Assembly (NCBI GenBank): GCA_045605175.1
Contig: JAZUPL010000035.1
Span: 1 to 63,600, forward strand
Length of the DNA: 63,600 bases
Direction of reading: 5' to 3'
Origin: Eubacteriales bacterium
GTDB lineage: Bacteria; Bacillota; Clostridia; Oscillospirales; CAG-272
Shown piece by piece: positions 3,152-25,718 of this stretch (within the stretch, counting starts at the first letter, position 1; each line of letters begins with the position of its first letter). The translations under genes were made by a program, and so were the position numbers. A model generated the notes under the pieces. The model did no database searches. It had not been told where the DNA came from and saw nothing but the letters and a program-made list of their open reading frames with translations.

Positions 3152-3213
3152 TATTATATTAAAATATAATTATTTTCAGAGTTGCAATTTTGACGTGTGG
3201 TTCTTGACAAAAA

Positions 3214-3257
3214 GCCTCTTTCGGTAGTTTTTTCTACCCAAAGAGGCTCTTTTTTTG
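3214..3257. terminator. Hairpin repeat copy 2 with T-run; bidirectional terminator for the SLOG gene (+) and the GH2 gene (-)
   Basis: gcctctttcggtagttttttctacccaaagaggc followed by tcttttttt, with aaaaa upstream. Confidence 0.8.
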
Positions 3258-3295
3258 TTTTATTTGTATTTAGGGAGGGAGAAAAGAAGACAGGC

Positions 3296-4984: not shown

Positions 4985-5159
4985 AGCCTTCTCCTCGTTG
5001 TTTTATGACATTATTTTATCACCACTTATGCAAAAAAGCAACATAAAACCAAAGGAGCGAAAAAATAAATTAAAAAAATTCACAAATCTTTGTTTAGTTC
5101 TTGAAAAAATATAGTTTCTGTGTTAAAATATTGATATTATTTTTTGACCGAGGTTTTCT

Positions 5160-6647
5160 ATGTTTATTCAAGGATTCAATAACGAACAGTATCTGAAAAT
5201 GCAATCGCAAAGGATTAAGGAGAGAATATCACTCTTTGGTGAAAAACTCTATCTTGAATTTGGAGGTAAACTCTTTGATGACTTCCACGCATCGAGGGTG
5301 CTTCCCGGCTTTGCCCCCGACAGCAAAATCAAGATGCTTATCGAGATTAAGGACGAGGCAGAGATTATAATTGCTATCAATACTGCGGACATTGAAAAGA
5401 ACAAGGTACGCGGCGACCTCGGCATTACCTACGACCTTGACGTTCTTCGCCTTATTGACGCCTTTCGTGGATACGGACTTTACGTCGGCTCGGTAGTAAT
5501 GACCAGATTCAGGCCCAGCCCCGTGTCCGACGCGTTCAAGGCAAAACTTGAAAACCTCGGTATAAAGGTATATAAGCACTATGCAATAGACGGCTATCCG
5601 CACAACATTCCTCACATAGTTTCCGAGGAGGGCTTTGGCAAAAACGAGTATATAGAAACAACACGTCCTGTTGTGATAGTTACCGCCCCAGGCCCCGGCT
5701 CGGGAAAAATGGCCACCTGCCTCTCGCAGATATACCACGAGAGCAAAAAGGGCAAGAAGAGCGGATATGCCAAGTTTGAAACATTCCCAATTTGGAATCT
5801 AACGCTTAACCACCCCGTAAACCTTGCCTATGAGGCAGCAACTGCCGATTTGGCTGACGTAAATATGATAGATCCCTTTCATCTTGAGTCTTACGGGGTA
5901 ACTACCGTAAACTATAACCGAGATGTTGAGGTGTATCCTGTTTTGCGTGCGATGCTCCAGGAAATTCTCGGCGAATGTCCCTACAAGTCCCCCACCGATA
6001 TGGGTGTAAATATGGCAGGATTTTGCATTTATGACAATGATGCGGTTTCTGCCGCAGCAAAGCAGGAGATAATCCGCCGCTATTATGTGGCGCTTTGCAA
6101 TCTTCGTAAGGGAACGGGTAGCGAAACCGAGTGCGAAAAGATAGAGATGCTTATGCGCAGGCTTTCTTGTGATCCTGTGAGGGATAGGCCCTGCGTGTCC
6201 GCCGCTCTTAAAAAGGCCGAGGAAACAGGCAATCCTGCGGTAGCCATTGAACTTAACGATGGCAGAATTGTCACGGGCAAGACCTCTCCGCTGCTCGGTG
6301 CTTCGAGCGCCGCCCTACTAAACGCACTTAAGGCTATTGCGGGAATTGACAGCGGTGTGGATATTATATCTCCCGAAATTCTCGCCCCCATTCAGGTGTT
6401 AAAGACGCAAAACCTCGGCAACCATAACCCAAGACTTCACACCGACGAGGTGCTTATAGCCCTTGCCATTTCCGCTGCAAATAATCCCAAGGCGGCCGAG
6501 GCTATGCAGGCTATTCCGATGCTCAAATATGCAGAGGTGCATTCGACGGTCATACTCTCCCAGGTTGACGCTGGCACATTCCGTAAACTTGGAGTAAATC
6601 TATCCTGCGAGCCAAGATACCAAACCAAGAAGCTTTTCCATAAATAA
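5160..6647 (+). CDS. UPF0371 / DUF1846 family protein
   Basis: N-terminus FNNEQYLKMQSQRIKERI...KLYLEFGGKLFDDFHASRVLPGF is characteristic of DUF1846. Confidence 0.85.
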   Translation: MFIQGFNNEQYLKMQSQRIKERISLFGEKLYLEFGGKLFDDFHASRVLPGFAPDSKIKMLIEIKDEAEIIIAINTADIEKNKVRGDLGITYDLDVLRLIDAFRGYGLYVGSVVMTRFRPSPVSDAFKAKLENLGIKVYKHYAIDGYPHNIPHIVSEEGFGKNEYIETTRPVVIVTAPGPGSGKMATCLSQIYHESKKGKKSGYAKFETFPIWNLTLNHPVNLAYEAATADLADVNMIDPFHLESYGVTTVNYNRDVEVYPVLRAMLQEILGECPYKSPTDMGVNMAGFCIYDNDAVSAAAKQEIIRRYYVALCNLRKGTGSETECEKIEMLMRRLSCDPVRDRPCVSAALKKAEETGNPAVAIELNDGRIVTGKTSPLLGASSAALLNALKAIAGIDSGVDIISPEILAPIQVLKTQNLGNHNPRLHTDEVLIALAISAANNPKAAEAMQAIPMLKYAEVHSTVILSQVDAGTFRKLGVNLSCEPRYQTKKLFHK

Positions 6648-6839
6648 TCATTTTCACATAGAAACTTTTTGCATAAAGTCAATATAACAGGTAAAAGCCT
6701 TTCATAACCAATTTTAAGGGTGTCCTTTTTGGGATGCCCTTTTTTATTTGAAAAGGTTTTGCTTTTGTTGACAAGGGCAGGGGAGAAGTGGTAAAATAAA
6801 AAAAGAATTATTTTATAATAAACTTAAGAAGGATAAATC

Positions 6840-7970
6840 ATGAAGTTTTTACATATATCAGACCTTCATATAGGAAAAAGGTTAAACGACTTTTCGCTTA
6901 TAGAGGACCAAAAGTATATTTTAACTCAAATAATAGATGCGGTAAAACTTCAAAAGCCCGATGCTGTGCTAATAGCGGGTGACGTCTATGACAAAAGCAT
7001 TCCACCCACCGAGGCGGTGGAACTTTTCGACGAGTTTTTGGTGAGCCTCTCGGCTCTTAAAACCAAGGTGCTCCTGATAAGCGGAAACCACGATTCGGCC
7101 GAGCGACTTGCCTTTGGCTCTCGCCTTATGGAGCAGAGTGGAATTTATATCTCCCCCGTGTATTGCGGTGTATGTGAGCCTCTCTCGCTCATTGACGAGT
7201 TTGGTGAATGCCGTATATATATGCTCCCCTTTGTCAAGCCTGCCACCGTACGCAGATTTTTCCCCGACCGTGAGATAGAAAGTTACACCGATGCCGTCAG
7301 GGTGGCAATAAAGAATATGAATATCGACGAGGGCAAAAGAAATATTCTCGTAGCCCACCAGTTTGTCACAGGGGCAGAAAGAAGCGAGTCCGAGGATGTG
7401 AGCGTCGGCGGACTTGATAACGTGGACGTGGGCGTGTTTGCCTCCTTTGACTATGTTGCTCTTGGACATATCCACAGACCGCAAAATTGTACCGAAACCG
7501 TCAGATACTGTGGCACACCGTTAAAATACTCATTCAGTGAGGCAGAACACAAAAAGAGCCTTACTATGTTGACTCTTGGCGAAAAAGGGGATATAAACAT
7601 AGAGGAAATACCCCTCATTCCCTTGCGTGATATGATATCTCTGTCGGGAAGTTATGATGAAATTATGTCCCGTGGCGTTTCTGACGACCGCCACAGAGAG
7701 TGCTTTGTCCGTGTGATATTGACAGACGAGGAGGAAATACCCGATGCCATGGCGGGATTAAGAACGGTTTATCCCAACATTATGGAACTTCGCTACGACA
7801 ACACACGCACGAGAAATATCGGTAAAGAAATGGGGGAAGTGGATATAAAAAATCGCTCACCCCTTGACCTCGTCAGCGAGTTTTACACTTTGAGAAACGG
7901 CAAGGATATGAGCGCGGAGCAGACGGCAATAGTCAAGAAATTGATAGAAGAGATTTGGGAGGCGGAGTAA
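6840..7970 (+). CDS. sbcD: Exonuclease SbcD (Mre11-type nuclease)
   Basis: Calcineurin-like motifs (HISDLHIG, AGDVYD, GNHD, GHIH). The stop overlaps the sbcC start (TAATG). Confidence 0.93.
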   Translation: MKFLHISDLHIGKRLNDFSLIEDQKYILTQIIDAVKLQKPDAVLIAGDVYDKSIPPTEAVELFDEFLVSLSALKTKVLLISGNHDSAERLAFGSRLMEQSGIYISPVYCGVCEPLSLIDEFGECRIYMLPFVKPATVRRFFPDREIESYTDAVRVAIKNMNIDEGKRNILVAHQFVTGAERSESEDVSVGGLDNVDVGVFASFDYVALGHIHRPQNCTETVRYCGTPLKYSFSEAEHKKSLTMLTLGEKGDINIEEIPLIPLRDMISLSGSYDEIMSRGVSDDRHRECFVRVILTDEEEIPDAMAGLRTVYPNIMELRYDNTRTRNIGKEMGEVDIKNRSPLDLVSEFYTLRNGKDMSAEQTAIVKKLIEEIWEAE

Positions 7971-10750
7971 TGCGACCAACAAAACTGATAATGTCGGCAT
8001 TCGGCCCTTATGCGGGGGTTGTGACTCTCGATATGGACAGGCTCGGCGAGAGTGGCCTATACCTTATCACGGGTGATACGGGTGCGGGCAAAACTACCAT
8101 TTTCGACGCAATAACCTTTGCCCTTTACGGTGAGGCAAGCGGTGCTTTTCGCAAGGCGGATATGCTACGGTCAAAGTACGCCACGCCCGAGTGCAAAACC
8201 TATGTAGAACTTACTTTTAGCCACAAGGGCGAGGAATATATAATAAGCAGAAACCCCACCTATGAGCGCCTGAAAAAAAGAGGGACAGGCGGCGAAACAA
8301 CAAAAGAAAACGCAGGGGCGACACTAACCCTGCCCGACGGCTCTGTGGTGACAAAGACCTCCGAGGTTACAAAAAAGATAATAGAAATTTTAGGTGTCAC
8401 AAGAGAGCAGTTTATGCAGATAGCGATGATTGCCCAGGGGGACTTTCTTCGTCTGCTTACCGCAAGCACCAACGACAGGAAGGAAATATTCAGCAGTATA
8501 TTTCACACGTCTGCCTATGAAACCCTCGCCGAAAGGATAAAGGCTATGACAAAGAACCTCGGCGCAGAGAGGTCGAGAATTGCCGAGGCGATAAAGTTGC
8601 ACCTGTCAAATTCGCTTATCAGGGAGGACTGCGAGGGTGGCGACCTTATACAGGCATTGCTTGAAGAATCCGCCATCGCTATTGTCAAGCGTATAGAGGA
8701 AATAAAGGTGATTTTATCCTCGGTTATAGTAAGCGACACAGAAGAAAAGGAAAATATAAAGAAAGAAATAGAGAAAGTCGAAAAGGAGATGACCTCTATC
8801 GAACTGCTTTTGGATAGAGCAAGGACGAGAGCAGAATTGATAGAAGAGAGGGACAAGGCAAAAACAGACCTGCAAACCGCCACAAAAGAAAAGGAAAAGG
8901 CGGAAGACGAGGAAAAGAGGATAGACCGACTAAAAGAGGAGCGCGAAAGAGTAGTACAAAAGGCGCAGGCACTTAACTCGGCTCTGCCCGAATATTCGAC
9001 TCTTGACACTCTTACAGAGAGAATATCCCAACTGATAGAGGATATAAAAGAGCAGGAAAAAGCCCTTGAAAATGCAGAAAAGAGAATAGCAGAACTTGAT
9101 ACGGCTATTTGCCTGTGCGAAGAAACTCGCCTCGGCCTTGAAGAAAAAAGTCAGGGAAAGGAGCAAGCCGTAAAGGAGAAGAACGAGGTAGAATCTCGAA
9201 TTATTGAACTTGAAAAATTAAAGGGTAGAATAGAAAACAAAGCGACCTTGACCGAAAGCCTTGTCAGCACAAGGCAGGAGTATGAGCAGGCGAAGGAAAA
9301 GGCAAGAACAACACTTGCGCTTTACACCGAGTTAAACTCAAGATTTTTAGACGAGCAGGCGGGCATACTTGCCGTGAATTTAAGCGATGGCAAGCCCTGT
9401 CCTGTGTGTGGCTCACTTTCGCACCCAAGCCCTGCAAATCCTTCCGAGGACGCCCCCACCGAGGCAGATGTAAAGAAAGCCAAGGAAAACAGTGATTCGG
9501 CACAGGAAGAAAGGGAACAGAAAAGTGTTGAGTGTAAATCAATAGCCACACGCCTTGAAGTGGAGGAAAAGGAGATAAGCGACAGTACTCTTCTTCTTTT
9601 TGGAGAGGGCGTGCTTGCAGAGTGTGAAACGGTCGCTTCCTTGATAGCCGAGTTGGAGGAGAAAAAGAACTCTCTTGAAAGCAGAATAAAAGAGATAGAA
9701 AGCGCCAAAGAGGCTCTCAAAAGCCTTGAAAAAGACCTGGGAGAAAAAAGGGAAGAGCGAGCAAGTCTTACCGAGAAAATAAAGGGTTGTATAAAAATAA
9801 TCGAGGCAAAAACCGAGGATAAAACCCTAACCGACAGCCAAAAGGAAAAGATAGTTGCAAAACTTGAATTTTCCACAAAAAAAGAGGCAGAGGACGAGAT
9901 TGTCGCCCTCGAAAAAAGAAAGTCCGAAATCGACGGGGATATTGAAACTATTACCCAAAGGCTTAATCAGGCGAGGGAAAACTACGCCACGGCAAAGGCT
10001 CTTTTAGCGAGCAAAAACGAGGAATTGGACAAGAGCAAGGAAGTCGATCTTTCTACAATAGAGGAAAACAAACAACAACTTATAGCAAGCAAAACAGCCC
10101 TCACAAACAAAAAGGAACAAGCCATAACAAGAATAGATACAAACACCCAGTCATTGAAAGATATAACCGAAAAGTATCAAGTATTCTTAAAGGTTGAGAG
10201 CGAGTATGTAATGCTTACGGGACTTGATGACACCTTCGGTGGCAAGGCTATGGGAGAGGGAAAAATCAAACTTGAAACCTATATCCTGACACATTATTTC
10301 GATAGGGTTATCGATATGGCGAATGTCAGATTTTTCACGATGAGTTCAGGACAGTATCGTCTTGTCCGTTCCACCGAGGCGGAGAGACAAGGGCAGGGCG
10401 GACTGGAACTTAATGTTATCGACTACTATACGGGTGCCGAGCGAAGTGTAAAAAGCTTGTCGGGTGGCGAATCCTTTAAGGCATCGCTATCCTTGGCACT
10501 TGGACTCTCCGACCTAATACAGAGCGACGCAGGTGGAATAGAACTTGACACGATGTTCGTGGACGAGGGCTTTGGCTCGCTTGATACAGAGTCTATTGAC
10601 GTTGCCGTTCGAGCATTGATAGGCCTTGGTGACGGCACCCGCCTTGTGGGCATCGTATCCCATAGACCGGAACTACTTGCAAGTATAGACCGTCAAATAC
10701 AGGTAAAAAAGGACAAGAAAAGCGGAAGCACGGCGAGAATAGTATTATAA
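7970..10750 (+). CDS. sbcC: SbcC / Rad50-type SMC ATPase
   Basis: Walker A GDTGAGKTT, a long coiled coil, zinc hook CPVCG, signature LSGGE and Walker B MFVDEGFG. Start set at the ATG overlapping the sbcD stop. Confidence 0.93.
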   Translation: MRPTKLIMSAFGPYAGVVTLDMDRLGESGLYLITGDTGAGKTTIFDAITFALYGEASGAFRKADMLRSKYATPECKTYVELTFSHKGEEYIISRNPTYERLKKRGTGGETTKENAGATLTLPDGSVVTKTSEVTKKIIEILGVTREQFMQIAMIAQGDFLRLLTASTNDRKEIFSSIFHTSAYETLAERIKAMTKNLGAERSRIAEAIKLHLSNSLIREDCEGGDLIQALLEESAIAIVKRIEEIKVILSSVIVSDTEEKENIKKEIEKVEKEMTSIELLLDRARTRAELIEERDKAKTDLQTATKEKEKAEDEEKRIDRLKEERERVVQKAQALNSALPEYSTLDTLTERISQLIEDIKEQEKALENAEKRIAELDTAICLCEETRLGLEEKSQGKEQAVKEKNEVESRIIELEKLKGRIENKATLTESLVSTRQEYEQAKEKARTTLALYTELNSRFLDEQAGILAVNLSDGKPCPVCGSLSHPSPANPSEDAPTEADVKKAKENSDSAQEEREQKSVECKSIATRLEVEEKEISDSTLLLFGEGVLAECETVASLIAELEEKKNSLESRIKEIESAKEALKSLEKDLGEKREERASLTEKIKGCIKIIEAKTEDKTLTDSQKEKIVAKLEFSTKKEAEDEIVALEKRKSEIDGDIETITQRLNQARENYATAKALLASKNEELDKSKEVDLSTIEENKQQLIASKTALTNKKEQAITRIDTNTQSLKDITEKYQVFLKVESEYVMLTGLDDTFGGKAMGEGKIKLETYILTHYFDRVIDMANVRFFTMSSGQYRLVRSTEAERQGQGGLELNVIDYYTGAERSVKSLSGGESFKASLSLALGLSDLIQSDAGGIELDTMFVDEGFGSLDTESIDVAVRALIGLGDGTRLVGIVSHRPELLASIDRQIQVKKDKKSGSTARIVL

Positions 10751-10910: not shown

Positions 10911-10975
10911 GAGAGCAGTAGAGTCTTCGTGACAGCTGACACAAATTTTGTGTCCCGACTGCTCTTTTTTATTTT
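10911..10975 (+). ncRNA. Candidate ~65-nt small RNA (promoter followed directly by a terminator)
   Basis: TTGACA(10877-10882)-16-TATAAT(10899-10904), then outer stem AGAGCAG/CTGCTCT enclosing GACACA/TGTGTC, then T6. Confidence 0.3.
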
Positions 10976-11048
10976 TAGAACAATTTGTTTTCAATTATTA
11001 AAATTTAGAGGGTATAACACTAAAAATAAAGAAAAAGCGAAAAACCTC

Positions 11049-11077
11049 TTGCAAAATCAAAATGTTTGTGTTATAAT
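11049..11077 (+). promoter_or_regulatory. Sigma-A promoter for tRNA-Ser
   Basis: TTGCAA-17 nt-TGtTATAAT (extended -10), about 84 nt upstream of the tRNA. Confidence 0.65.
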
Positions 11078-11160
11078 ACCAAAGTGTTGTGACACAGTAT
11101 GCATCATAGAGAGTTATTTCACCTCCAGTGAATATAAACACCTTGTTGCATCATATTTAT

Positions 11161-11251
11161 GCAGAGGTATCGAAGAGGTCATAACGGGGCTGACTCGAAA
11201 TCAGTTTGTGGATAACACCACACGAGGGTTCGAATCCCTCCCTCTGCGCCA
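11161..11251 (+). tRNA. tRNA-Ser (anticodon CGA), class II with long variable arm, CCA encoded
   Basis: Acceptor GCAGAGG/CCTCTGC; anticodon stem GCTGA/TCAGT with loop CTCGAAA; variable arm GTGG..CCAC; T arm GAGGG-TTCGAAT-CCCTC; discriminator G plus CCA. Confidence 0.9.
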
Positions 11252-11296
11252 AAGGTTCAATTTAACCCATTCGGGTTGGATTGAACCTTTCTTTTT
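11252..11296 (+). terminator. Intrinsic terminator after tRNA-Ser
   Basis: aaggttcaat/attgaacctt stem with inner aaccc/gggtt, followed by ctttttt. Confidence 0.8.
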
Positions 11297-11324
11297 GGCT
11301 CATTCCGAAACTCTCAGCGAGGAT

Positions 11325-12095
11325 ATGCCCGATGATGGCAGTAACGGTGGCGCAACAAACGCCGACCTTATTACCAACGACTACCTCTGGGCGTCCTATG
11401 CTTTTATGCACGAGTCCTACGATGATGACGGCGAATCTGATTTTAATGACACATCGGCATTGAATACATATACCTACATTCACGAGTTTGGACATATCCT
11501 CGGCGCTGATGATTATTATGACACCGCAGCCGACACATCTCCTATGGAAGGTTGCGATATTATGGATTCAATGCTTGGAGATCATAGCGCATTCACCAAA
11601 ATTAATTACGGCTGGATAACAGAGTCGCGCCTCGTTGTGACCGACGATTATGTCACCTTGACCTTAAAAGATTTTGGTAAAACAGGCGACACGGTAATCA
11701 TTGCCAACAACTGGGATGAAACTCTTGGCGCATATCAGGAGTATTTTATTGTAGTTTATTACACGAATTTGGGGCTTAACGGCGGTGATAATGCAGGTTA
11801 CTTTGCCCGTGACGGAGTTGTTGTTTACCGCATAAATTCCTCTCTTTATATTGACTCGGAATACGAGGAAATTTATTACGATATTTATAACAATAACACA
11901 GCCCCCTCCGAAGAGTATGGCACCGAGGACAACCTCATTGAGTTTGTAAAAACCCAAAACGACACATTTACCTATGTTGAGGGCGACACCCTCCCAAAGG
12001 TTATTCTCACCTCTGGTGAGAGCCTTATTTATACCTTTGTTGTAGAGTCGATTGATTCCGACGGTGCAACAATTACATTTACAAAAGTGGCTTAA
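11325..12095 (+). CDS. M6 (immune inhibitor A)-like zinc metalloprotease, C-terminal part only; possible gene remnant
   Basis: HEFGHILGADDYYD zinc motif only about 55 aa after the first usable Met. There is no signal peptide or N-terminal catalytic half. The upstream part of the ORF-track frame runs through the tRNA, its promoter and its terminator. Confidence 0.5.
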   Translation: MPDDGSNGGATNADLITNDYLWASYAFMHESYDDDGESDFNDTSALNTYTYIHEFGHILGADDYYDTAADTSPMEGCDIMDSMLGDHSAFTKINYGWITESRLVVTDDYVTLTLKDFGKTGDTVIIANNWDETLGAYQEYFIVVYYTNLGLNGGDNAGYFARDGVVVYRINSSLYIDSEYEEIYYDIYNNNTAPSEEYGTEDNLIEFVKTQNDTFTYVEGDTLPKVILTSGESLIYTFVVESIDSDGATITFTKVA

Positions 12096-12215: not shown

Positions 12216-13328
12216 TTAGTTTTTTAGCACTTCGGCAAGTTGCTCCAAAGCGTCATCATAGTTGTCAAAATCAATTATGTAATCGCACAAGGAGGCGTTT
12301 TGTTCTTCGTAATCAATAGCGCAAAGTCTGTTTACTTTATCCTCGATTGATGAGTTTTTCCTGAGGATACTCGCCATCAAGGCTCTTTTGTCCCTCTTGA
12401 TATAAACCGTCGTAACATTTTTATAGTAGGTTTTGAGCGACATAGCGCCACAAATATCCATAGTTGTCACTACACGCTTTCCGCGGGCAAAGGTGGCTTC
12501 AATATCGCTTCGCTTAGTTCCATAGCAGTTGCCGGCGTATGTGGTGGCGGACAGAAATTCGCCTCTGTCACACATACTACGGAATTCCTCAAGCGATACA
12601 TAGTTATACCACTTATTGTTGGGTGTTTCCGAGGGCTCTTTGGTGGTATAAGTAACCAGTTTTTCAAAATCAGGGTTTTCCTCCAAAAAACGGGAAGCAA
12701 TTTTTGACTTTCCGCTGCGGGCAGGTCCTACCAGAACAACGATATCGGGGTCTTCTTCATTTTTTGGGTGGGGAATTGCTGAATAACTTTCCGCGATAAC
12801 CTCCACCAGTTTTAGAAATTCATCATAGTTGTTGACTGCCAACATACCGGTTGCTTCCTGATTCCAGGGGCGGCGCATCAGTATAGGGTGCTTTGCGCCT
12901 GAATTAAGGATGTTGTGCAGGGCATCGTCGAAGAGGATGTCGGTGTGTATATTTTCTTTGGCAGCGCCCATGTAAATATGATTCTCAGGAATTTCGGGAA
13001 ATTCCTCCATAATTCGCCTTGCCCGAATGCCCATAAACTGAGGCGGTATAGCAGTGCAAATATAAACCTCTACCATCTGAGAGAGCCTTTTTACAAAATC
13101 TTGTGCGCCCTCGTAAACGGGCTGGGTGCGATAAAATTCGGGATCGTTAAAATAACTGTAAATAGTATCTGCGCGTGTACCCATTTCGCCCCAACGTTCC
13201 TTTTCATATATGGTCATTGGTGGATTGAATTGATATTTTTCGTTGGCTAACCTGATAACATAAGATGTGCATTCCATCAAAAGGTCATCCACGTCAAGGG
13301 CGACCGATAATTTGTATTTTTTGTTCAT
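12216..13328 (-). CDS. Fusion protein: 5'(3')-deoxyribonucleotidase (NT5C/HAD) N-domain + guanylate kinase C-domain
   Basis: HAD motif I DVDDLL and motif IV FDDALHN in the N-domain. P-loop GPARSGKS and Gmk-like EFLSATTYAGNCYGT in the C-domain. Start set at MNKKYKL, which is preceded by a GAGGT RBS. Confidence 0.8.
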   Translation of the reverse strand: MNKKYKLSVALDVDDLLMECTSYVIRLANEKYQFNPPMTIYEKERWGEMGTRADTIYSYFNDPEFYRTQPVYEGAQDFVKRLSQMVEVYICTAIPPQFMGIRARRIMEEFPEIPENHIYMGAAKENIHTDILFDDALHNILNSGAKHPILMRRPWNQEATGMLAVNNYDEFLKLVEVIAESYSAIPHPKNEEDPDIVVLVGPARSGKSKIASRFLEENPDFEKLVTYTTKEPSETPNNKWYNYVSLEEFRSMCDRGEFLSATTYAGNCYGTKRSDIEATFARGKRVVTTMDICGAMSLKTYYKNVTTVYIKRDKRALMASILRKNSSIEDKVNRLCAIDYEEQNASLCDYIIDFDNYDDALEQLAEVLKN

Positions 13329-13513
13329 TTTACTACCTCGCTTTCTTAAATGTGCTTCGATATACAAATCAAATATTGTCGCGCTTACGCCGTCCACAGC
13401 GACAAGAGAGCAAACCCAATACATACTATATATAAAAAAGGGTTTTCATTTATCACTTTTTATGATTATTAATCGGAGCACATTGTTTAGTTAAATTTTA
13501 TCATCTATATAAT

Positions 13514-13600
13514 AAAAAAATCTACCGTTACAAAGAACGGTAGAAAATCATTTAGGGTGATTTGTAGAGACACGCAACCATATCATGCGTTTATACCAGA
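13514..13600 (-). promoter_or_regulatory. Purine riboswitch (C at the specificity position: guanine class) with overlapping intrinsic terminator
   Basis: The minus-strand RNA aligns to the xpt G-box: P1 UGGUA/UACCG, P2 ACGCA/UGCGU, L2 AUAUGG, J2/3 UCUCUAC, P3 AAAUCA/UGAUUU, L3 CCCUAAA, J3/1 UCU. Terminator is CUACCGUU/AACGGUAG plus U7. Confidence 0.85.
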
Positions 13601-13630
13601 AAAATATATAGATAGTTATTTTGGAATATG

Positions 13631-17366: not shown

Positions 17367-17560
17367 AAATTAGGCTCAACGATAACGCCGAGGTTGTCAA
17401 GACGGTCAAAGAGGGGCTTGAGAGGACGGGTGGCTATTGCCCTTGTCGCTTGTCAAGGACCGAGGATAACAAATGTATGTGCCTCGAATTCAGAAAGCAG
17501 ATTAAGGACCCTGATTTTGAAGGATACTGTCACTGTATGCTATATTATAAGGAAAAGTAG
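17363..17560 (+). CDS. Ferredoxin:thioredoxin reductase catalytic-subunit-like protein (minimal FTRc)
   Basis: CPC-x14-CMC-x15-CHC cysteine pattern of FTR catalytic chains. ATGA start/stop overlap with trxA. Confidence 0.7.
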   Translation: MKIRLNDNAEVVKTVKEGLERTGGYCPCRLSRTEDNKCMCLEFRKQIKDPDFEGYCHCMLYYKEK

Positions 17561-17563
17561 AGA

Positions 17564-17596
17564 GAACGGGAATTTTAGTCCCGTTCTTTTGTTTTT
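17564..17596 (+). terminator. Intrinsic terminator after the trx-FTRc pair
   Basis: gaacggga/tcccgttc stem followed by ttttgttttt. Confidence 0.8.
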
Positions 17597-17726: not shown

Positions 17727-20700
17727 ATGAAAAGATTGATTTACGGAGTGCTTTTGCTAATAGTAATCACCTGTCTTTTTTGCTCATTTTCCGATGGGGG
17801 AGCGAGCGAAAACGGCAGGGCGATAATAACCGAACAAGGCGATATTTACATCGGCACTCTTGACGGAGAAGAGGTAGTTGCAAACGGGGATATATACGAG
17901 GTAATCAAAACCTTGTCGAGCCTTTGTAAAAGGCTTGAATTTGACGGAATAAGCACAACCGATAGTCTAAAACTTCCCGAGGGCCGTTACGAATTTTTCG
18001 GCAGTTTTGAAATTGAGGACAATCTTATTATCGAGCAAGGAGTGGAACTTACACTTTTTGGCGATATTCGTTTGGGAGGCAGTATTATTCTGCGTGGCGG
18101 TACGCTTAAAATCATCGACGGCGTGACACGGGCAGACGGTGGAGTAATCCTCGACTCCTTTGCAGGCTCGTCTCTTTTTATGAGTGGAGGCGAAATAATA
18201 TCCTCGAAAAGCGGCGGTGCTGTTGAAATATGGCTCGGTACGGCAGAAATAGGCGGAGGATATATAAAAAATGCAAACGGAAATGCTATTGTAAACCATT
18301 CCACACTTTCGCTTGGTGGCTCTGTATTGCTCGACGGCGGTGGGGTTGATTTGCTGACAAGCAAACCTGTTGGACTTACCGCCTGTGGAGAGGGGCTTGC
18401 TTCGGTCTTGGAGTGCGAGTATTCTGCCGAGATAAAGGAGGGATATAGAACTACCGTATTTTATAGCGCAAAAGGCGTCTATATAGATAACATAGCCCTC
18501 TTTGACAAAGATGGAAAGTCTCAGAGCCTTGGATATTCAGAGAGTTTAGAGGGCTGTGCCTATTCTGATATATTATCCGTCAACCTACCTTATTTTGCCG
18601 AGTATTACAGCGCTACTGAATTAATATATAGGAGCGAGTTTTATGTTGGCGAAAGGGCAGAAGTACCTGATATTGTTATGCCACAGGGCTTTACCGTCTT
18701 GGGTTGGTACAAGGACATAAATCATACCGAGGAGTTTGTCTTTGGCTCTTTACCCTCTGAGTCTTACAGGGTGTTTGTTGGAGTAGGACTTTCGCCCTTT
18801 TCCTATTCGATAAACCGACTGAAAACCGAGTATGACGGCAAGGAGCATATAGTTTCTTTTGCATCGCTAAGTCACCCTCTTGACGGGCAGTACAGTTTCG
18901 TCTGGTATAACCCAAGGGGCGAGGTGGTGTCGCTTTCCGACAGTTTAACCGTAAAAAACACCACCGATAGCGGAATGTACAGTTGCGAAATAACCTTCAG
19001 ATACGAGGGATATACCATAACTCGCTTGGTAGAAGATATAGAGATATCCATAGAAAAAAAGGTGCTGAGTATTCCCACAGTACCGAGCGTTGAATATGAC
19101 GGTGGCGAAAAGCAACCTATGATTTTTTCCACCTCTCTATATGAGGTCGAAAGGGTGGGATACACAGACTCAGGAGTGTATAAAGTAGCCCTGACACTTC
19201 TTGACAGCGAAAATTACAGGTGGCTAATAACAGAGGGGGAAACTGCCTACGCAAGTTTTGAGATAACACGGGCAGAGAATTACTGGTTAGAAAGCCCTTG
19301 GGTGGGCGACACATATTTTGGCGAGCAGATTTTACAGAGAGCAACAGGTCGCTTTGGTGAGCTGGTATATCTTTATTCAAAGGAGGAAAACGGCGAATAC
19401 ACTACCGAAACACCCAAAGAGGTAGGAACATATTATCTTAAGGCGGTAATAGAAGAAACGGGCAACTACCTCGGGTTAGAGAGCGAGCCTTTAAGGTTCT
19501 TTATAATGGAGGACAAGGTTGTTTCACTCTCGGTGCTAACCCTAATGACAAAGAGTGAATACACCTCGTTTGACTATTTTGACAGAAGTGGATTAACCCT
19601 GCTCGCTACTTATAAAAGTGGTAAAAAGGAAGAAATTGACGGAAAAAGCGTAGCCGTATCCTATCAAAGCGCCGACTCCTTCAGATACCTTGACACGGCT
19701 ATACTTGTGACTTACAAAGGCATCACCCTTCCAATTCCCGTCACTATCAGCAAGGCGGAATATCTCTTTTTTATACAGGATTTTCAAACCAAAACAACCT
19801 ATAACGGAAAATATCAAATTCCCACGGTGAGTATAAATATGCCCACAGGCATTGACCAAATAACCCCAACCTACAAGGTAATCGGCGGGGGGAGAGATAG
19901 AGGAGTCTATACGGTAAGGATAGATTTCTTTACCGAGAGTCAGGAGTATTTCGTGCCTGAAAGTCTGACATTCGAGTTTACTATTTCCGCCTATGAGGTG
20001 GAAGGTGTGTATTATAATACGACCTTCGTCTATGACGGAGGGGTAAAATGTCCCGAGGGGTATTATCTTGATATTTTCGGGGCAGAGATACCGCTTTCTT
20101 TTGAGGGTGGCAAAACAAACGCAGGGGATAATTATTTAGCAAAGGCATATATTAACGACGAAAACTATTACTTAAAAAATGACACGGTAGAGTTCAAAAT
20201 AGAAAAGGCGTACTATAATCTTGCCGAGGTGTATTGGAGTTCCGACGGTTTTACCTATAATGGGCAGGTGCATAGCGTGTCGGTTTACGGCTTGCCTGAT
20301 GGCGTTGAGGCTGTCGGATATTTAGACAACATCGCCATCGATGCGGGGGAGTATTTTGCCGAGGTAAGACTGATATATGACGATAAAAACTACATTAAGC
20401 CACAAATCGAGCCATACAGATGGGAAATAAAAAAGGCAGAATACGATATGACATCCGTCGAGGTCTTAGGTGGAATGTTTGAATATAGCGGTGATTACTA
20501 CTACCCAACAATTTTGGGAGAGATGCCGACGGGGCTTGATGGATATACGCTTTGTTATCGTATTTTGGACGGTGTTAGGGATGTGAGTGTCGGTGCTGTT
20601 AGTGTGGGAGTGGAGTTCTTCACCGAGAGCAAAAACTATAACGCACCGCCTATAATGTATGCGACGGTTGAGGTCTATCCCAAGGAGATTACCGTACTAT

Positions 20701-22502
20701 GGTCAGACCTTTCGACCGTCTATAACCAAAAGCCACAATATCCAAAGGCAGAGGCCGAGGAGTGCGACATAGAGGTGGAAGTTCTCGCCATAAACGCAGG
20801 CGAATACACCGCAAAGGCAAAAGCCAAAAACCCAAATTACACGGTTAAAAACAGTTCGGCAGTGTTCGTTATACAAAAGGCGGAGAACTATTGGACTTCT
20901 GTCCCTACTGCTACCGATATTTTCTTCGGGCAAGGGGTGAAAATAAACGGTTCGCCCTTTTATGGGGATTTTGAGGTCGAGTATTATCTTGACAAAGAAC
21001 TATCGCGTCCTATAAATCCCCCTCTTGAGGTTGGCAAATACTACGCCTGCCTTGTGGTTAGGGAAAGCGAAAATTACGAGGAACTCAGGTCTGAGGCACT
21101 ATCCTTTGAGGTAAAAGCAGTAATCGCCGAAAGCATTGAATTTACTCTATTAAACCCTATTTTAGCACTTTCAAAAATAGAGTATGGGGATTATGTCTTG
21201 TTGATTAAATACAATGACGGAAGCGTAAGAGAGGCAGAGCACGGCGAGGTCGAATTCGTTTACGAAAACGGCAGTTTGCCAAGGGGAAATGACGGTAAAA
21301 TGACGGTTGTTTGCCTCGGAATATCTCTTGATTTGTCTGTCACGGTACAAAAGGCAGAGTATGACTTGTCGGGCGTTTATTGGGATAACCTCTACTATGA
21401 ATATGACGGAAAAGAGAAGACGCCAAGCCTGTTGGGATTGCCACAGGGTGTATCCGTGGCGAATATTCTCGGCTCGGCTACGAATGCAGGGGAGTATATT
21501 ATTTCTGCCACTGTAAACTACGATGAGGAAAACTACAACGAGCCGAAAATGCCCACGGCAAAAATGACAATTGCAAAGCGGGGTATAACACCCTCGTTTC
21601 AAAACAGCGCGATATATAACGGTGAAATTATTTTCCCCATGGCGAGCGAGGACTTTCTTGTCCCCCTATGCGACGGTTTTCGTGACGCAGGCGAGCATTT
21701 GGTTGCTTTCGAATTAACAGATGAGAAAAACTACTACCTGACAACCCCTTACGCCACCTTTACAATTCACCCCGCCCCCGTGGAAATAGTGATAAAGGAC
21801 AAGGAGTTATATCTATTCGAGAGGGTGGAGAATATTGAATATGAAATAAACACTCACGGCAAGGATATTTCCTTCAACTTTGATTTTCATTTTGAAGGGG
21901 ATAGGATATATGCAAGGAGTGAGGACGGAAACATTCTTCTCTCTGTAACCCCCGGTAAACTTGTCAGAATTTTTGCCCTGTCGCCAACTTTAGGACGAGC
22001 GATATGTATCTCTTTTATTCTCTTTGTTTTCTTCGCCCTTTTGCTTGCTATAATTATTCGGTACAAAAATAAAATCTTCATGTTTTTAAGACCGGCAGGG
22101 GTGGTAGAAAAGCAGGTGTCAACCCCATCACTTTTGGGGACGGGGTATCTCTCGGTGGACCTTGAACACGCCGAGCGACTTCTCACCGACACCATAGCAC
22201 GCACGCTTTTGAGAAAAGAAACCGAGGTTATAAAAACCGAGGGAAGCAAGAGAGTATATATAAATGTCGATGTTTTAAGCGAGCATTTCTCCCCTGGGGA
22301 TAGGATAGATATAAATATCCTAAAAGCAAAAGGACTTGTGCCAAAGGACGCCTTGACGGTAAAGGTGCTTGGTCGGGGAATGATAGACAAGCCACTTTTC
22401 GTCTATGCAAATTCCTTTAGCCTCTCGGCGGTAAAAATGATAGCCCTGACGGGTGGCGAGGCACACAAGGTGATAAGCGAAAACAAGAATAACGATAACT
22501 AA
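17727..22502 (+). CDS. Giant membrane-anchored surface protein: signal/TM, beta-helix-like Gly-rich region, InlB B-repeat, about 10 MBG-type (YDG/YNG) Ig-like repeats, C-terminal TM, uL15-like cytoplasmic tail
   Basis: N-terminal hydrophobic segment. Repeated ...EYDGxEKxP / YNGxxxxP modules. TM LGRAICISFILFVFFALLLAIIIRY (21990-22064). Tail aligns with the uL15 C-terminal domain. Confidence 0.85.
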   Translation: MKRLIYGVLLLIVITCLFCSFSDGGASENGRAIITEQGDIYIGTLDGEEVVANGDIYEVIKTLSSLCKRLEFDGISTTDSLKLPEGRYEFFGSFEIEDNLIIEQGVELTLFGDIRLGGSIILRGGTLKIIDGVTRADGGVILDSFAGSSLFMSGGEIISSKSGGAVEIWLGTAEIGGGYIKNANGNAIVNHSTLSLGGSVLLDGGGVDLLTSKPVGLTACGEGLASVLECEYSAEIKEGYRTTVFYSAKGVYIDNIALFDKDGKSQSLGYSESLEGCAYSDILSVNLPYFAEYYSATELIYRSEFYVGERAEVPDIVMPQGFTVLGWYKDINHTEEFVFGSLPSESYRVFVGVGLSPFSYSINRLKTEYDGKEHIVSFASLSHPLDGQYSFVWYNPRGEVVSLSDSLTVKNTTDSGMYSCEITFRYEGYTITRLVEDIEISIEKKVLSIPTVPSVEYDGGEKQPMIFSTSLYEVERVGYTDSGVYKVALTLLDSENYRWLITEGETAYASFEITRAENYWLESPWVGDTYFGEQILQRATGRFGELVYLYSKEENGEYTTETPKEVGTYYLKAVIEETGNYLGLESEPLRFFIMEDKVVSLSVLTLMTKSEYTSFDYFDRSGLTLLATYKSGKKEEIDGKSVAVSYQSADSFRYLDTAILVTYKGITLPIPVTISKAEYLFFIQDFQTKTTYNGKYQIPTVSINMPTGIDQITPTYKVIGGGRDRGVYTVRIDFFTESQEYFVPESLTFEFTISAYEVEGVYYNTTFVYDGGVKCPEGYYLDIFGAEIPLSFEGGKTNAGDNYLAKAYINDENYYLKNDTVEFKIEKAYYNLAEVYWSSDGFTYNGQVHSVSVYGLPDGVEAVGYLDNIAIDAGEYFAEVRLIYDDKNYIKPQIEPYRWEIKKAEYDMTSVEVLGGMFEYSGDYYYPTILGEMPTGLDGYTLCYRILDGVRDVSVGAVSVGVEFFTESKNYNAPPIMYATVEVYPKEITVLWSDLSTVYNQKPQYPKAEAEECDIEVEVLAINAGEYTAKAKAKNPNYTVKNSSAVFVIQKAENYWTSVPTATDIFFGQGVKINGSPFYGDFEVEYYLDKELSRPINPPLEVGKYYACLVVRESENYEELRSEALSFEVKAVIAESIEFTLLNPILALSKIEYGDYVLLIKYNDGSVREAEHGEVEFVYENGSLPRGNDGKMTVVCLGISLDLSVTVQKAEYDLSGVYWDNLYYEYDGKEKTPSLLGLPQGVSVANILGSATNAGEYIISATVNYDEENYNEPKMPTAKMTIAKRGITPSFQNSAIYNGEIIFPMASEDFLVPLCDGFRDAGEHLVAFELTDEKNYYLTTPYATFTIHPAPVEIVIKDKELYLFERVENIEYEINTHGKDISFNFDFHFEGDRIYARSEDGNILLSVTPGKLVRIFALSPTLGRAICISFILFVFFALLLAIIIRYKNKIFMFLRPAGVVEKQVSTPSLLGTGYLSVDLEHAERLLTDTIARTLLRKETEVIKTEGSKRVYINVDVLSEHFSPGDRIDINILKAKGLVPKDALTVKVLGRGMIDKPLFVYANSFSLSAVKMIALTGGEAHKVISENKNNDN

Positions 22503-22518: not shown

Positions 22519-22547
22519 TTGAAAATAATAAAACAATGTGATATAAT
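22519..22547 (+). promoter_or_regulatory. Sigma-A promoter
   Basis: TTGAAA-17 nt-TGaTATAAT. Confidence 0.65.
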
Positions 22548-23188: not shown

Positions 23189-23252
23189 GAAGTTACCGCA
23201 ATCACTTTTGAAGTTACTGCAATAACTATTTGAAGTTGCCGAAAACGTCTTT
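23187..23252 (+). repeat. Three tandem 21-22-bp direct repeats (TTGAAGTTRCYGMAAW...)
   Basis: Units start at 23187, 23208 and 23230. The last unit merges into hairpin ccgaaaac/gttttcgg just upstream of the rluA-family RBS. Confidence 0.7.
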
Positions 23253-23283
23253 TAAGTTTTCGGATATATCTGTTGGAGTCACA

Positions 23284-23976
23284 ATGATAGAATTCTTGTA
23301 TTTGGACGAGGATATACTCGTCATTTATAAGCCGTCGGGTGTTCCTACCCAAGCGGATAAAGGAGCAGAGCGTGACGCTCTCTCTGTTGCAAAAGAGAAA
23401 CTTTCTGATGTGGGCGAGGACAACTCGCTTTGGCTTGTGCACAGGCTCGACCGTGTGGTGAGCGGAGTGCTGGTCTTTGCAAGAAACAAAAGGACTGCCG
23501 CAGAACTATGCGAGTATGTAAAAAAATACCTGTTAAACAAGGAGTATCTCGCGGTAGTCGAGGGCGAAGGCATAGACGGGCTTCTTGAGGACTTTATTTA
23601 TAAGGACGCAAGGATAAACAAGGCGTTTGTTTTGAGAACCAAGAGGGGCGGGGCAAAGAAGTGTAGCCTTGAGTGTAGGACGCTTGCCACCACCACCTGC
23701 GAAAAGGGCACGAGAAGTTTGGTGTCTATATCCTTAATTACGGGTAGATTTCACCAGATAAGGGCGCAACTCTCATCTCGCTCCTTGCCCATAGTCGGTG
23801 ACAGAAGATACGGTAGCCGCGAGGGTGTCGGGGACTATATAGCACTTGCATCTGTGGGACTTACCCTGCCTCTGCCTATGGGAGAACACAGGGTGGTAAA
23901 ACTGCCCGATCTTGACAAATATCCTTGGAACATATTCCCGAAAGAAATATACGAAAGAGTAAAAGACAATGACTAA
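23284..23976 (+). CDS. RluA-family pseudouridine synthase
   Basis: HRLDRVVSGVLVFAR catalytic motif and GRFHQIRAQL. Start set at MIEFLYL behind GGAG. Confidence 0.88.
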   Translation: MIEFLYLDEDILVIYKPSGVPTQADKGAERDALSVAKEKLSDVGEDNSLWLVHRLDRVVSGVLVFARNKRTAAELCEYVKKYLLNKEYLAVVEGEGIDGLLEDFIYKDARINKAFVLRTKRGGAKKCSLECRTLATTTCEKGTRSLVSISLITGRFHQIRAQLSSRSLPIVGDRRYGSREGVGDYIALASVGLTLPLPMGEHRVVKLPDLDKYPWNIFPKEIYERVKDND

Positions 23977-25132
23977 AAAGTTATTTTATCTTGATGCCTA
24001 TATAAGCGAATTTTCCTCGACCGTCACTTCTGTAAGGGACGAGAGTGGGGTGTTTATGGTAGAACTTGACGCCACCGCATTTTTCCCCGAGGAGGGAGGA
24101 CAGTTTGCCGACACGGGATACATAGGCGAGCATAGAGTTTTAGATGTAAAGGAAAGGGACGGCAGAATTTTTCACTACACCGCCACAAAGCCCAATGTGG
24201 GCGAGGAATATTTTTGCAGAATAGACTTTGTAGAGAGGTATGAGAGGATGCGCTGTCATACCGCCGAGCATATTCTTTGCGGTATTATACACAGGGAGCA
24301 CGGCTTTGACAACGTGGGCTTCCACCTTGGTGACGATATAGTGACCTTTGATATAAGTTCCTACCTTGATAGAGAGCAACTTGACAGGATAGAGGACGAG
24401 GCAAACAGGATTATTTCAAAATGTCTGCCCGTCTATTCAGCCTTCCCCAAAAGCGAGGAATTGACTGAAATTTCCTATCGTTCAAAACTCGATCTTACCG
24501 AGGGGGTAAGGCTAATATATATCGGCGAAGATGGCGAGGTGGATATCTGTGCCTGTTGCGCTCCCCATGTTTCAAACACAGGCGAGATAGGTCTTATCAA
24601 AATACTTGATTTTGAGAGGCACAGAGGTGGAGTCCGTATAACCTTCCAAGCAGGCGTGCGTGCGCTTTTAGACTATCGGGCGAGATATACCGCAACCAAG
24701 AGAATTTCCGAACTTCTCTGTGTACCGCAGAACGAGGTTGCCGCCGCCACCGAGGGACTTGTGGCAGAGTGCGAGTCGCTCCGCAGAAAACTTGCCGAAA
24801 TCTCGCTAAACAAGGCGATAAGCGAGGCGGATAAAATTACCCCGACCGAGGGAAATCTTGTGGTGTATTACCCCGAACTATCCCAAAAAGAGTTGACCGA
24901 GTTCGTAAAGCGTGCCTCGAATAAGGTAGGCGGGCTTTTGGTAGCACTCTCGGGCGATGAGGGAAATATCAAATATATGATAACCTCCGAAAGCATGAAC
25001 CTATCTACTTTGGTAAAGCAGTTTAACCTTGACCTCGCGGGCAAGGGGGGAGGAAAACCGAATTGCGTTTCGGGCAGTTTCTCGTCCCCGTTTGAAAGAA
25101 TAAAAGAATATTTTGAGAATTTGAAGATATAG
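23969..25132 (+). CDS. Alanyl-tRNA editing protein (AlaX-L type: editing domain + DHHA1)
   Basis: HTAEHILCG...H zinc motif, CCAPHV, and a C-terminal GGGKPN DHHA1-like motif. Overlaps the previous gene by 8 nt. Confidence 0.85.
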   Translation: MTKKLFYLDAYISEFSSTVTSVRDESGVFMVELDATAFFPEEGGQFADTGYIGEHRVLDVKERDGRIFHYTATKPNVGEEYFCRIDFVERYERMRCHTAEHILCGIIHREHGFDNVGFHLGDDIVTFDISSYLDREQLDRIEDEANRIISKCLPVYSAFPKSEELTEISYRSKLDLTEGVRLIYIGEDGEVDICACCAPHVSNTGEIGLIKILDFERHRGGVRITFQAGVRALLDYRARYTATKRISELLCVPQNEVAAATEGLVAECESLRRKLAEISLNKAISEADKITPTEGNLVVYYPELSQKELTEFVKRASNKVGGLLVALSGDEGNIKYMITSESMNLSTLVKQFNLDLAGKGGGKPNCVSGSFSSPFERIKEYFENLKI

Positions 25133-25160
25133 AAACGGATAAAAGAGAAGAAAACAAAAA

Positions 25161-25195
25161 GAGGAAAACCTCCTGAATTAACCTTGGTTTTCCTC
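25161..25195 (-). terminator. Terminator hairpin between convergent genes (U-run on the minus strand)
   Basis: 10-bp stem gaggaaaacc/ggttttcctc, with an A-run on the plus-strand upstream side. Confidence 0.7.
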
Positions 25196-25226
25196 AAATA
25201 TATTTGCCTTTAAGTGTAAGTCCTTG

Positions 25227-25718
25227 TCACTGATTAAATCCGAGGACAATTTGTGCCCTTGTGGGCTTAAACTCTGTGAGAGTGACGCCTGCGGCGATGA
25301 GCATTCTTTTCGATGCCTCAACACTCGGCGTTCCGTTATATTTGTTAGAGAGGTAGATAACCTCTTTTATTCCCGACTGGATAATAGCCTTGGCACACTC
25401 GTTGCAGGGGAATAGCGCAACATATAAACGAGAGCCAAAGAGTGATTTGCCCCCTGCGTTAAGCACTGCGTTGAGTTCGGCGTGTACTACGTATGGGTAC
25501 TTGGTTTCGCCCTGCTCGCTGTCGCGATTCCAAGGGAAGTCATCGTCAGAGCACCCCTGAGGAAAGCCGTTGTAGCCTGTTGAAATAATTCTGTTGCTGT
25601 TATCAACTATGCATGCGCCTACCTGGGTACTTGGGTCTTTGGAACGACCTGCCGCCAAGAGGGCAACGCCCATAAAGTATTCATCCCAGGATATGTAATC
25701 TATTCTCTTATCCGACAT
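25227..25718 (-). CDS. Deoxycytidylate (dCMP) deaminase
   Basis: HAELNA and PCNECAK zinc-binding motifs; 163 aa. Confidence 0.9.
   Translation of the reverse strand: MSDKRIDYISWDEYFMGVALLAAGRSKDPSTQVGACIVDNSNRIISTGYNGFPQGCSDDDFPWNRDSEQGETKYPYVVHAELNAVLNAGGKSLFGSRLYVALFPCNECAKAIIQSGIKEVIYLSNKYNGTPSVEASKRMLIAAGVTLTEFKPTRAQIVLGFNQ

Follow-up and report, generated by a model that had tools for sequence, protein, structure and literature searches.

A giant surface protein from Clostridia with a predicted cytoplasmic tail homologous to the globular domain of ribosomal protein uL15

Why would a giant surface protein end in what looks like part of a ribosomal protein? This question is raised by a gene in a 63,600-nucleotide (nt) stretch of DNA from a bacterium of the Clostridia (Eubacteriales bacterium, contig JAZUPL010000035.1), which was analysed as a whole and is called the window below. 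The gene encodes a predicted membrane protein of 1591 amino acids (aa), whose C-terminal tail is similar to the ribosomal protein uL15 (L15). To our knowledge, the domains of universal ribosomal proteins are rarely found to act outside the ribosome. A first-pass annotation of the window had placed a transmembrane (TM) helix at 21990-22064, followed by about 145 aa. This placement was borne out by hydropathy: the strongest hydrophobic segment near the C-terminus is at aa 1426-1444 (Kyte-Doolittle 19-residue mean of 3.3), and the tail beyond the TM helix has 145 residues. The window contains one copy of the gene, as does each homologous locus. The parts of the gene and its product are as follows.

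17727..22502, + strand: whole gene, encoding a predicted type I membrane protein of 1591 aa (signal peptide, giant ectodomain, TM helix, uL15-like cytoplasmic tail); from translation of the open reading frame (ORF) and 66 homologous loci with the same architecture
17727..17800, + strand: Sec-type signal peptide (MKRLIYGVLLLIVITCLFCSFS...), with an approximate cleavage site; from hydropathy and the pattern of family N-termini
17801..21989, + strand: ectodomain of ~1400 aa, predicted to be extracellular, with a Gly-rich head and then YDG/ENY repeat modules (MBG-like, Ig-like); from Pfam and motif counts
21990..22064, + strand: single C-terminal TM helix, aa 1422-1446; from Kyte-Doolittle hydropathy, with an equivalent helix in every family member
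22065..22151, + strand: basic juxtamembrane cluster (RYKNK...) and variable linker predicted to be disordered, aa 1447-1475; from K/R enrichment and a predicted local distance difference test (pLDDT) score <55
22152..22253, + strand: family-specific N-terminal extension of the module, with two short helices and a strand (VDLEHAERLLTDTIARTLLRKETEVIKTEGSKRV); from an AlphaFold2 model
22254..22475, + strand: homologue of the uL15 C-terminal domain, called uL15C here, aa 1510-1583 (74 residues); from Pfam, PDB sequence and fold matches
22476..22502, + strand: short C-terminal extension (SENKNNDN) and stop codon; K/R-rich in many relatives, not in the window protein

The relationship of the tail to uL15 is found by searches of families, sequences and folds. 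In Pfam, aa 1512-1579 are matched by PF00828 (Ribosomal_L27A, which covers L15, L18e and L27A), and nearly the full profile is covered (positions 2-71 of 72). The E-value is 1.4e-10 when the whole protein is searched and 4e-12 when the 74-aa fragment is used (42-47 bits, where the gathering cut-off is 21.5). No other family was matched by the tail in Pfam or NCBIfam, apart from a match below the cut-off to TIGR01071, the NCBIfam equivalog model for rplO (28-34 bits against a cut-off of 77.95). This latter match is limited to model positions 71-142 of 144, and therefore the N-terminal extension of uL15 is absent from the tail, in agreement with the first-pass annotation, which had reported the Gly/Arg-rich N-terminus to be missing. 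When PDB sequences were searched with phmmer and hmmsearch, using either a profile of the tail family or the window sequence alone, only uL15 and eL18 chains were found. The best-scoring chains are Firmicutes uL15 proteins (Enterococcus, Listeria, Staphylococcus, Bacillus), which are matched at residues ~72-144. Over this region the tail aligns to uL15 without gaps, at ~38% identity. An alignment to Bacillus subtilis L15 that had been proposed on inspection was reproduced by the PDB chain 3j3v_L, whose residues 75-144 are matched with an E-value of 1.6e-6.

Structure prediction leads to the same relationship. The AlphaFold2 model of the tail has a mean pLDDT of 85, rising to >93 for tail residues 31-141, and its top Foldseek matches, which have a probability of 1.0, are without exception to the uL15 of bacterial or chloroplast ribosomes. 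The superposition on uL15 has a root-mean-square deviation (rmsd) of 1.6-2.0 Å over ~76 residues, with an identity of 30-36%. Thus, profile, PDB sequence and fold searches agree with the earlier claim that 22254-22475 encodes a homologue of the globular C-terminal domain of L15.

Relative to bacterial uL15 (rplO; PF00828, TIGR01071), the module shares the globular C-terminal alpha/beta domain, the predicted fold and all of the universal signature residues (vNl, KvLG.G, FS.SA, GG), and it is closest to the uL15 of Firmicutes. However, the Gly/Arg/Lys-rich N-terminal extension of uL15 is replaced by a TM helix, a linker and a helical hairpin, and the module is fused through these to the 1400-aa ectodomain. 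The helical hairpin is an addition relative to uL15, as is a clade signature, AVKM[IL]xLTGG, which in the window protein's family is part of the invariant stretch ANxFSLSAVKMIALTGG. The last helix is also more hydrophobic than that of uL15, with VKMIALT in place of KEAVEAA. The genes differ in their settings as well: uL15 is a free protein of ~145 aa encoded in the spc operon (rpmD-rplO-secY), whereas the window gene encodes a 1591-aa membrane protein and is flanked by thioredoxin and ECF-S genes. Judged by these matches, the tail module is a paralogue of the C-terminal globular domain of Firmicutes uL15, and, because it lacks the N-terminal extension, it is distinct from the ribosomal protein.

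The added element of two helices and one strand was modelled confidently (helices at tail residues 33-39 and 42-48, strand at 50-58, pLDDT >93). The Foldseek alignments to uL15 leave it uncovered, and it has no counterpart in uL15. Its consensus is VDxxxADxLITDSLAKxL..., and a motif within it, AxxxLxxDxxA, is kept across all architectures described below. An S4-like or L30-like origin for the helical hairpin was considered and dropped, as it matched no Pfam family at E <= 1.

On which side of the membrane does the module lie? We addressed this question using hydropathy, the positive-inside rule, signal peptides and the types of domain in the ectodomain. In the N-termini of family members, a basic n-region is followed by a hydrophobic core and an AxA-like end, as in Sec signal peptides. 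Between the signal peptide and the TM helix, the domains found in 31 homologues are of extracellular types (Big_3 in 14, Flg_new, i.e., the Listeria-Bacteroides repeat, in 13, MBG_3 in 10 and Ig_2 in 9). The ectodomain of the window protein matches MBG_3 with 25.4 bits, where the cut-off is 25, and no relative of this ectodomain was found among PDB sequences. In the 15 residues after the TM helix, the mean number of lysines and arginines is 3.9, versus 1.9 in the 15 residues before it, and the number is greater after the helix in 54 of the 66 members. In small relatives of ~170-180 aa the bias is stronger (3.0 versus 0.3, in 107 of 109 proteins), which argues for an orientation with the N-terminus outside and the C-terminus inside. 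Because the Sec signals, the extracellular-type domains and the positive-inside rule agree, the tail of the window protein is predicted to be cytoplasmic, as the first-pass annotation had supposed in placing it at the inner face of the membrane. Taking identity and topology together, we are highly confident that the tail is a non-ribosomal homologue of the globular C-terminal domain of uL15 that lies in the cytoplasm.

An additional observation on the juxtamembrane region is that many giant-type members have a motif, [IL][KR]C[RK][WLI] (e.g., VKCRW or LRCRL), located ~15-20 residues past the TM helix. It occurs in loci L003, L006, L007, L012, L014-L016, L022, L024 and others, while the window protein has FLRPAG at this position.

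It is important to consider that the arrangement might be an artefact, in which the similarity arose by chance or an rplO gene was misassembled onto a surface-protein gene, or that the protein is simply the organism's functional uL15. Public pipelines could be taken to favour a ribosomal protein, since they label such proteins as 'uL15 family ribosomal protein' (e.g., the 838-aa MBR2965343.1), 'ribosomal protein L15' or 'ribosomal protein L18E'. However, chance similarity is at odds with the Pfam E-values of 1e-10 to 4e-12 and with an rmsd below 2 Å for the fold. Misassembly, which had been raised as a possible explanation of the joined reading frame, conflicts with contigs from four other, independent gut metagenome runs (goat and others; Logan), which cross the junction of the TM helix and tail with no indels or joints (one of these, of 568 nt, spans 21875-22442), and with the identical layout of 66 homologous loci. 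The runs recovered were all of DNA. A role as the organism's uL15 is contradicted by a score far under the rplO equivalog cut-off, by the missing N-terminal 70 residues and by the location of the gene outside the spc-operon context. These explanations are therefore hardly credible, and we consider them refuted as far as sequence analysis goes. On the same grounds the public naming is a mis-naming, and labels of L15 or L18e can distort marker-gene counts and annotations in metagenome-assembled genomes.

The module is also the most conserved part of the protein. Among 30 full-length homologues, the mean identity is 66% in the uL15-like domain, 41% in the helical element, 27-35% in the ectodomain and 15-17% in the TM helix and linker. 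The linker, whose identity is 15%, varies in length across the family from 38 to 183 aa, with a median of 64. All invariant columns of the 1591-residue alignment are within the tail. Constraint is therefore much stronger on the module than elsewhere in the protein.

How widespread is the module? A genome scan using one genome per species yielded 122 matching stretches, from which 80 loci were retrieved. The ORF carrying the match could be read in 66 of these. In each case it encodes a protein of 680-1830 aa that starts with a signal, has a single strong TM helix and carries the module at its very end. Metagenomes and metagenome-assembled genomes are the source of all relatives. Searching 1.84 billion representative proteins with a profile of the tail identified 276, 1381 and 2791 clusters (at 50% identity) with E-values up to 1e-30, 1e-10 and 1e-3, respectively. 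The module is always C-terminal in these clusters, and its carriers are exclusively uncultured Clostridia from the guts of ruminants and humans. The window module is thus one member of a large Clostridia family of C-terminal uL15C modules. Searches of phage and plasmid collections with the tail matched genuine rplO genes only, and there were no matches to the PADLOC (defence) or PHROGs (phage) libraries.

The architectures share a signature, [S/D/Q]AVKM[IL]xLTGG, together with an upstream helix, Axx(x)hhxDxxA. In the window protein these appear as SAVKMIALTGG and HAERLLTDTIA, and the same features recur in giant, small and mid-size forms. The small form, represented by at least 647 further clusters, has ~170-180 aa, with a TM helix starting at residue ~3 that is followed by a Glu/Pro/Val-rich linker. 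The mid-size form, of 370-540 aa, is anchored at its N-terminus by a TM helix or a hairpin, and a long linker of acidic repeats and an unannotated domain of ~150 aa precede the module. A fused form, whose length is at least 2600-2780 aa, combines an ectodomain of the MBG type and a TM helix with a unit exactly of the mid-size type, to which they are joined by a Gly/Asp-rich loop. In yet another form, two tandem DUF1508 (YegP) domains precede the module. These relatives also match the C-terminal portion of a model for tryptophan-tRNA ligase, though weakly and far below its cut-off, and the literature on DUF1508/YegP gives no function. Finally, a few forms lack a TM helix, including those of the P0267, P0259 and L114 type. 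In nearly all of the recovered architectures, then, the module is predicted to lie at the inner face of the membrane, held there through a TM anchor and a flexible linker that is rich in Pro and Glu and usually acidic. The anchor protein has three main forms: alone, encoded directly behind the gene of a giant TM-anchored surface protein, or fused to one, as in the window. In a gapless alignment of the domain, real uL15 is 38-39% identical to the small or giant forms, which are 51% identical to each other. This pattern is compatible with the descent of all forms from one duplicated rplO gene of Firmicutes.

The ~150-aa domain ahead of the module occurs in L100, L108, L121, L131 and L145 and in the tails of L101, L122, L129 and L144, and is duplicated in L122. 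It is characterized by the motifs YxxSFxAKLIQ...SW...GR...GKTLxLxLALDP...TKY...PYETTxxLIxxxLIK. No sequence match to it was found in Pfam, NCBIfam or the PDB, and it appears to be an unannotated domain family. Some other matches need a different explanation. Two short, apparently stand-alone matches of the giant type on long contigs (P0200, P0126) proved to be fragments of the giant gene in the same synteny, and were rejected as a separate form. In P0261 (a 2.2-kb contig) and P0277 (0.9 kb), the module follows an Mfd N-terminal (UvrB-interaction) or an RNase III-like (PF00636) segment. Given such very short contigs, both may be chimeric assemblies.

The genes encoding these modules are repeatedly linked to those of surface proteins. 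The surface-protein part and a uL15-like unit are fused in at least 14 metagenome loci. In six others (L097, L099, L116, L121, L126 and L133), the gene of an anchored uL15-like protein starts 0-13 nt past the stop codon of a giant ORF, of which at least 435-2300 aa lie within the locus, and whose product ends with a TM helix and a short basic tail. In L116, for example, the giant surface-protein gene at 247-8219 ends with a TM helix and KRRKGRNN, and the junction (GGGAGGAACAACTGATGATG) contains a ribosome-binding site and an overlapping TGA/ATG stop and start. Such a pair looks like a two-gene version of the fused form and, when simplified, of the window gene. The occurrence of both fused and separate genes is an argument for joint action of the surface protein and the cytoplasmic module.

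A second kind of linkage involves the small form, of ~172 aa. In three of four long loci, its gene lies between those of SipW-like signal peptidases and those of TasA/camelysin-like proteins whose signal peptides are of the SipW type. In the operons in question (L096:4705-12540, L095:553-8353 and L081:5719-9258), genes for two SipW-like peptidases and at least two TasA/camelysin-like proteins are accompanied by genes for a large protein, also with a signal peptide of the SipW type, and for two unknown proteins, of ~163 and ~196 aa. The TM-anchored uL15-like protein, of ~175 aa, is encoded directly after the first SipW.

What, then, might the module do? Because it is strongly constrained, almost invariably tethered to the inner face of the membrane by flexible acidic linkers and recurrently fused to or coupled with exported giant proteins, we propose that it could be a docking device, through which some conserved macromolecule of the cytoplasm would be tied to the surface protein or to the site of its export. 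We judge the likeliest partner to be the large ribosomal subunit, a pre-50S particle or some other structured RNA, e.g., the operon's own mRNA. Through such docking, the membrane would be the place where very large secreted proteins are translated or where idle ribosomes are kept. Among ribosomal components, the only known partner that remains for the ancestral uL15 C-terminal domain is structured rRNA, and a large-subunit particle or structured RNA would therefore be the most parsimonious choice. The reason is that the listed contacts of uL15 with the proteins uL4, bL21 and bL35 are all made by residues 8-63 (PMC4881015). Slight additional support comes from the combination of the module with tandem DUF1508 domains, in relatives that also show the weak tryptophan-tRNA ligase match, and from the existence of membrane-anchored 50S binders in other phyla, namely YqjD, ElaB and YgaM (10.1101/2024.08.16.608256). 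Taken as a whole, a docking module for the ribosome or RNA that is tied to the biogenesis of surface proteins is the best explanation we can offer, and we hold it tentatively, as somewhat more apt to be wrong than right. Regarding the narrower claim, that the module docks to RNA or a ribosome, our judgement likewise leans to the negative side. In its most specific form the proposal would be that gut Clostridia have a dedicated membrane receptor for ribosomes or structured RNA, which was derived from a duplicated uL15 globular domain, is encoded with or fused to giant surface proteins and TasA-like fibre operons, and holds a translating polysome or an idle or immature 50S subunit at the export sites of very large proteins. 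We regard this full scenario as unlikely.

Several points weigh against docking to RNA or the ribosome. The rRNA site in the mature 50S subunit that is cognate to the domain is already filled by the resident uL15, and most of the rRNA anchoring of uL15 is ascribed, like its protein contacts, to the N-terminal extension. Residues 8-63, which make the contacts with uL4, bL21 and bL35, are absent from the module (PMC4881015). The module is also nearly neutral, with a mean net charge of about +1; however, charge is uninformative on RNA binding here, as real uL15 C-terminal domains are near neutral as well (-1 to +3). The hydrophobic last helix could equally form a protein interface or pack on the added helices. 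The linkage to SipW and TasA is confined to one subfamily, and was seen in only 1 of 60 metagenome loci. The neighbourhood of the window gene looks like housekeeping-type synteny and yields no functional clue. Finally, one relative, P0262 (L090:4506-5069), has a lipoprotein-like N-terminus (MKFTKLFALILALAVLLCACGG) with no basic cluster behind it, which would put its uL15-like module outside the cell, unlike in the rest of the family. The contig encoding P0262 is 5.3 kb long and has low coverage.

Some of these same features could suit a different use of the uL15 fold, purely for protein-protein contact. The module would then be a cytoplasmic adaptor, an oligomerisation domain or a 'foot' with no role in RNA or ribosome binding, and its partners would be the secretion, cell-envelope or cytoskeletal machinery, or other copies of the module. 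The family-specific hydrophobic last helix and the added, conserved helical hairpin are in line with this idea, as are the near-neutral charge, the genetic linkage to SipW and to the TM segments of giant proteins, which belong to the membrane and to secretion, and the co-occurrence of the module with other unannotated cytoplasmic domains. However, the universal signature residues of uL15 are all kept, and an identity of 66% with invariant surface lysines exceeds what a mere anchor would need. We consider protein-protein contact rather doubtful, yet nearly as likely as docking to RNA or a ribosome.

Other explanations give the tail a signalling or a purely mechanical role. Like other single-pass sensors, to which its architecture is similar, the protein might respond to a ligand or to force on the ectodomain by intramembrane proteolysis, such that the released uL15-like domain acts in the cytoplasm, e.g., in translation or ribosome assembly. 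The disordered, variable linker would be compatible with this scheme, as would soluble forms such as those of the P0267, P0259 and L114 type. However, no protease gene is consistently linked, and the small relatives, whose TM helix begins at residue ~3, have essentially no extracellular part with which to sense anything, so a signalling device strikes us as improbable. The tail might otherwise be an inert folded 'stopper' that prevents the single TM helix from being extracted when the ectodomain is under load. It is indeed small and globular, in a protein that lacks LPXTG or any other wall anchor. However, a stopper would explain neither the extreme conservation with its family-specific invariant residues nor the presence of the same module in proteins without any ectodomain, and we give it very little credence.

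Among known systems, the proposed docking module has its closest functional analogy in YqjD, ElaB and YgaM, the membrane-bound, 50S-binding hibernation factors of Proteobacteria. These are also single-pass proteins, and in both cases a cytoplasmic domain could tether ribosomes. However, the analogy is one of function only: the folds are unrelated, and no DUF883-type match was found in the window protein using Pfam and NCBIfam. The orientation is opposite as well, as YqjD is C-tail-anchored, whereas in the window protein the TM helix precedes the domain. Moreover, ribosome binding has been demonstrated for YqjD (10.1101/2024.08.16.608256), while for the uL15C family it is a proposal.

The ectodomain side of the protein resembles the giant, repeat-rich, adhesin-like proteins of Firmicutes (with MBG, Big_3 or Listeria-Bacteroides repeats) in its signal peptide, repeat arrays, fast divergence and variable repeat number. 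Unlike these, the window protein has as its anchor a TM helix that is joined to a conserved, folded domain in the cytoplasm, rather than LPXTG/sortase, SLH or choline-binding elements. By motif count, it contains no [LIVS]PxTG-type motif, and any LPxTG is found in only 1 of 66 relatives. Where sortase-anchored LPXTG adhesins have a short basic stub, it has a folded tail of 145 aa. The tapA-sipW-tasA fibre operons are a further point of comparison, given that small relatives of the module are found amid SipW-like peptidases and TasA-like proteins in the three long loci mentioned above. However, the window gene has no SipW-type signal peptide match and no such neighbours. We know of no uL15-like component in the B. 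subtilis tapA-sipW-tasA operon.

We found no paper on uL15C proteins in full-text literature on uL15 fusions, PF00828 or membrane-anchored L15 paralogues, and no non-ribosomal use of the L15/L18e fold in the literature or among structures. The window protein is best described as a new non-ribosomal branch of this fold in a new architecture. If the module binds ribosomes or RNA, it would represent a new Gram-positive route to couple translation to the export of very large surface proteins, or to store ribosomes at the membrane. If the idea of a membrane receptor is true, it would be a Firmicutes counterpart, of independent origin, to the ribosome receptors of the eukaryotic endoplasmic reticulum and to proteobacterial YqjD. 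If the module binds a protein instead, it would clearly exemplify how a ribosomal fold can be put to new use in coupling across the membrane.

The surroundings of the window gene can be described briefly. Upstream are genes for an acyl-ACP thioesterase and a thioredoxin, and downstream are those for an ECF-S component, an RluA-like pseudouridine synthase, an AlaX-like protein, a deaminase and a radical SAM protein. This gene order is conserved in the lineage. The block encoding the RluA-like, AlaX-like and cytidine/tRNA-adenosine-type deaminase proteins (window 23230-25718; L002-L080) follows the giant gene in 62-76 of 80 species, and is probably a lineage-wide housekeeping synteny rather than a functional link. 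These three genes are all RNA-related housekeeping genes. Two further elements flank the giant gene.

17560..17590, + strand: terminator-like hairpin with a 12-bp stem and T-run, after the upstream thioredoxin gene; from a consensus match
22519..22547, + strand: promoter-like site, TTGAAA-17-TATAAT with a TG extension, 17 nt past the stop codon and before the ECF-S gene; from a consensus match

The terminator-like hairpin upstream and the promoter-like site just downstream suggest that the giant gene is monocistronic and has its own transcription start.

No ribosomal operon was found within the window. Minus-strand ORFs at 46.7-50.5 kb (123, 182, 250, 429 and 150 aa) were considered as an spc operon with the true rplO gene, and were rejected, as Pfam identifies them as part of a HydABC-type [FeFe]-hydrogenase cluster with kinase-like and PHP proteins. 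This cluster occupies 43148-51366 on the minus strand and encodes a HydA-like protein (589 aa), a Nuo51-like protein (608 aa), two thioredoxin-like [2Fe-2S] proteins, a second Fe-hydrogenase-like/PAS-less sensor-type protein (429 aa), two histidine-kinase-like ATPase proteins and a PHP-domain protein. Elsewhere in the window, a tRNA gene of 88 nt, probably of the long-variable-arm type, is located at 11161-11248 on the plus strand. Because it is inside the mechanically called ORF at 10929-12095, that ORF is probably not a gene. A purine riboswitch aptamer (Rfam RF00167, 51 bits) is at 13521-13618 on the minus strand, upstream of a gene for a fused 5'-nucleotidase (NT5C) and guanylate kinase (12216-13424, minus strand).

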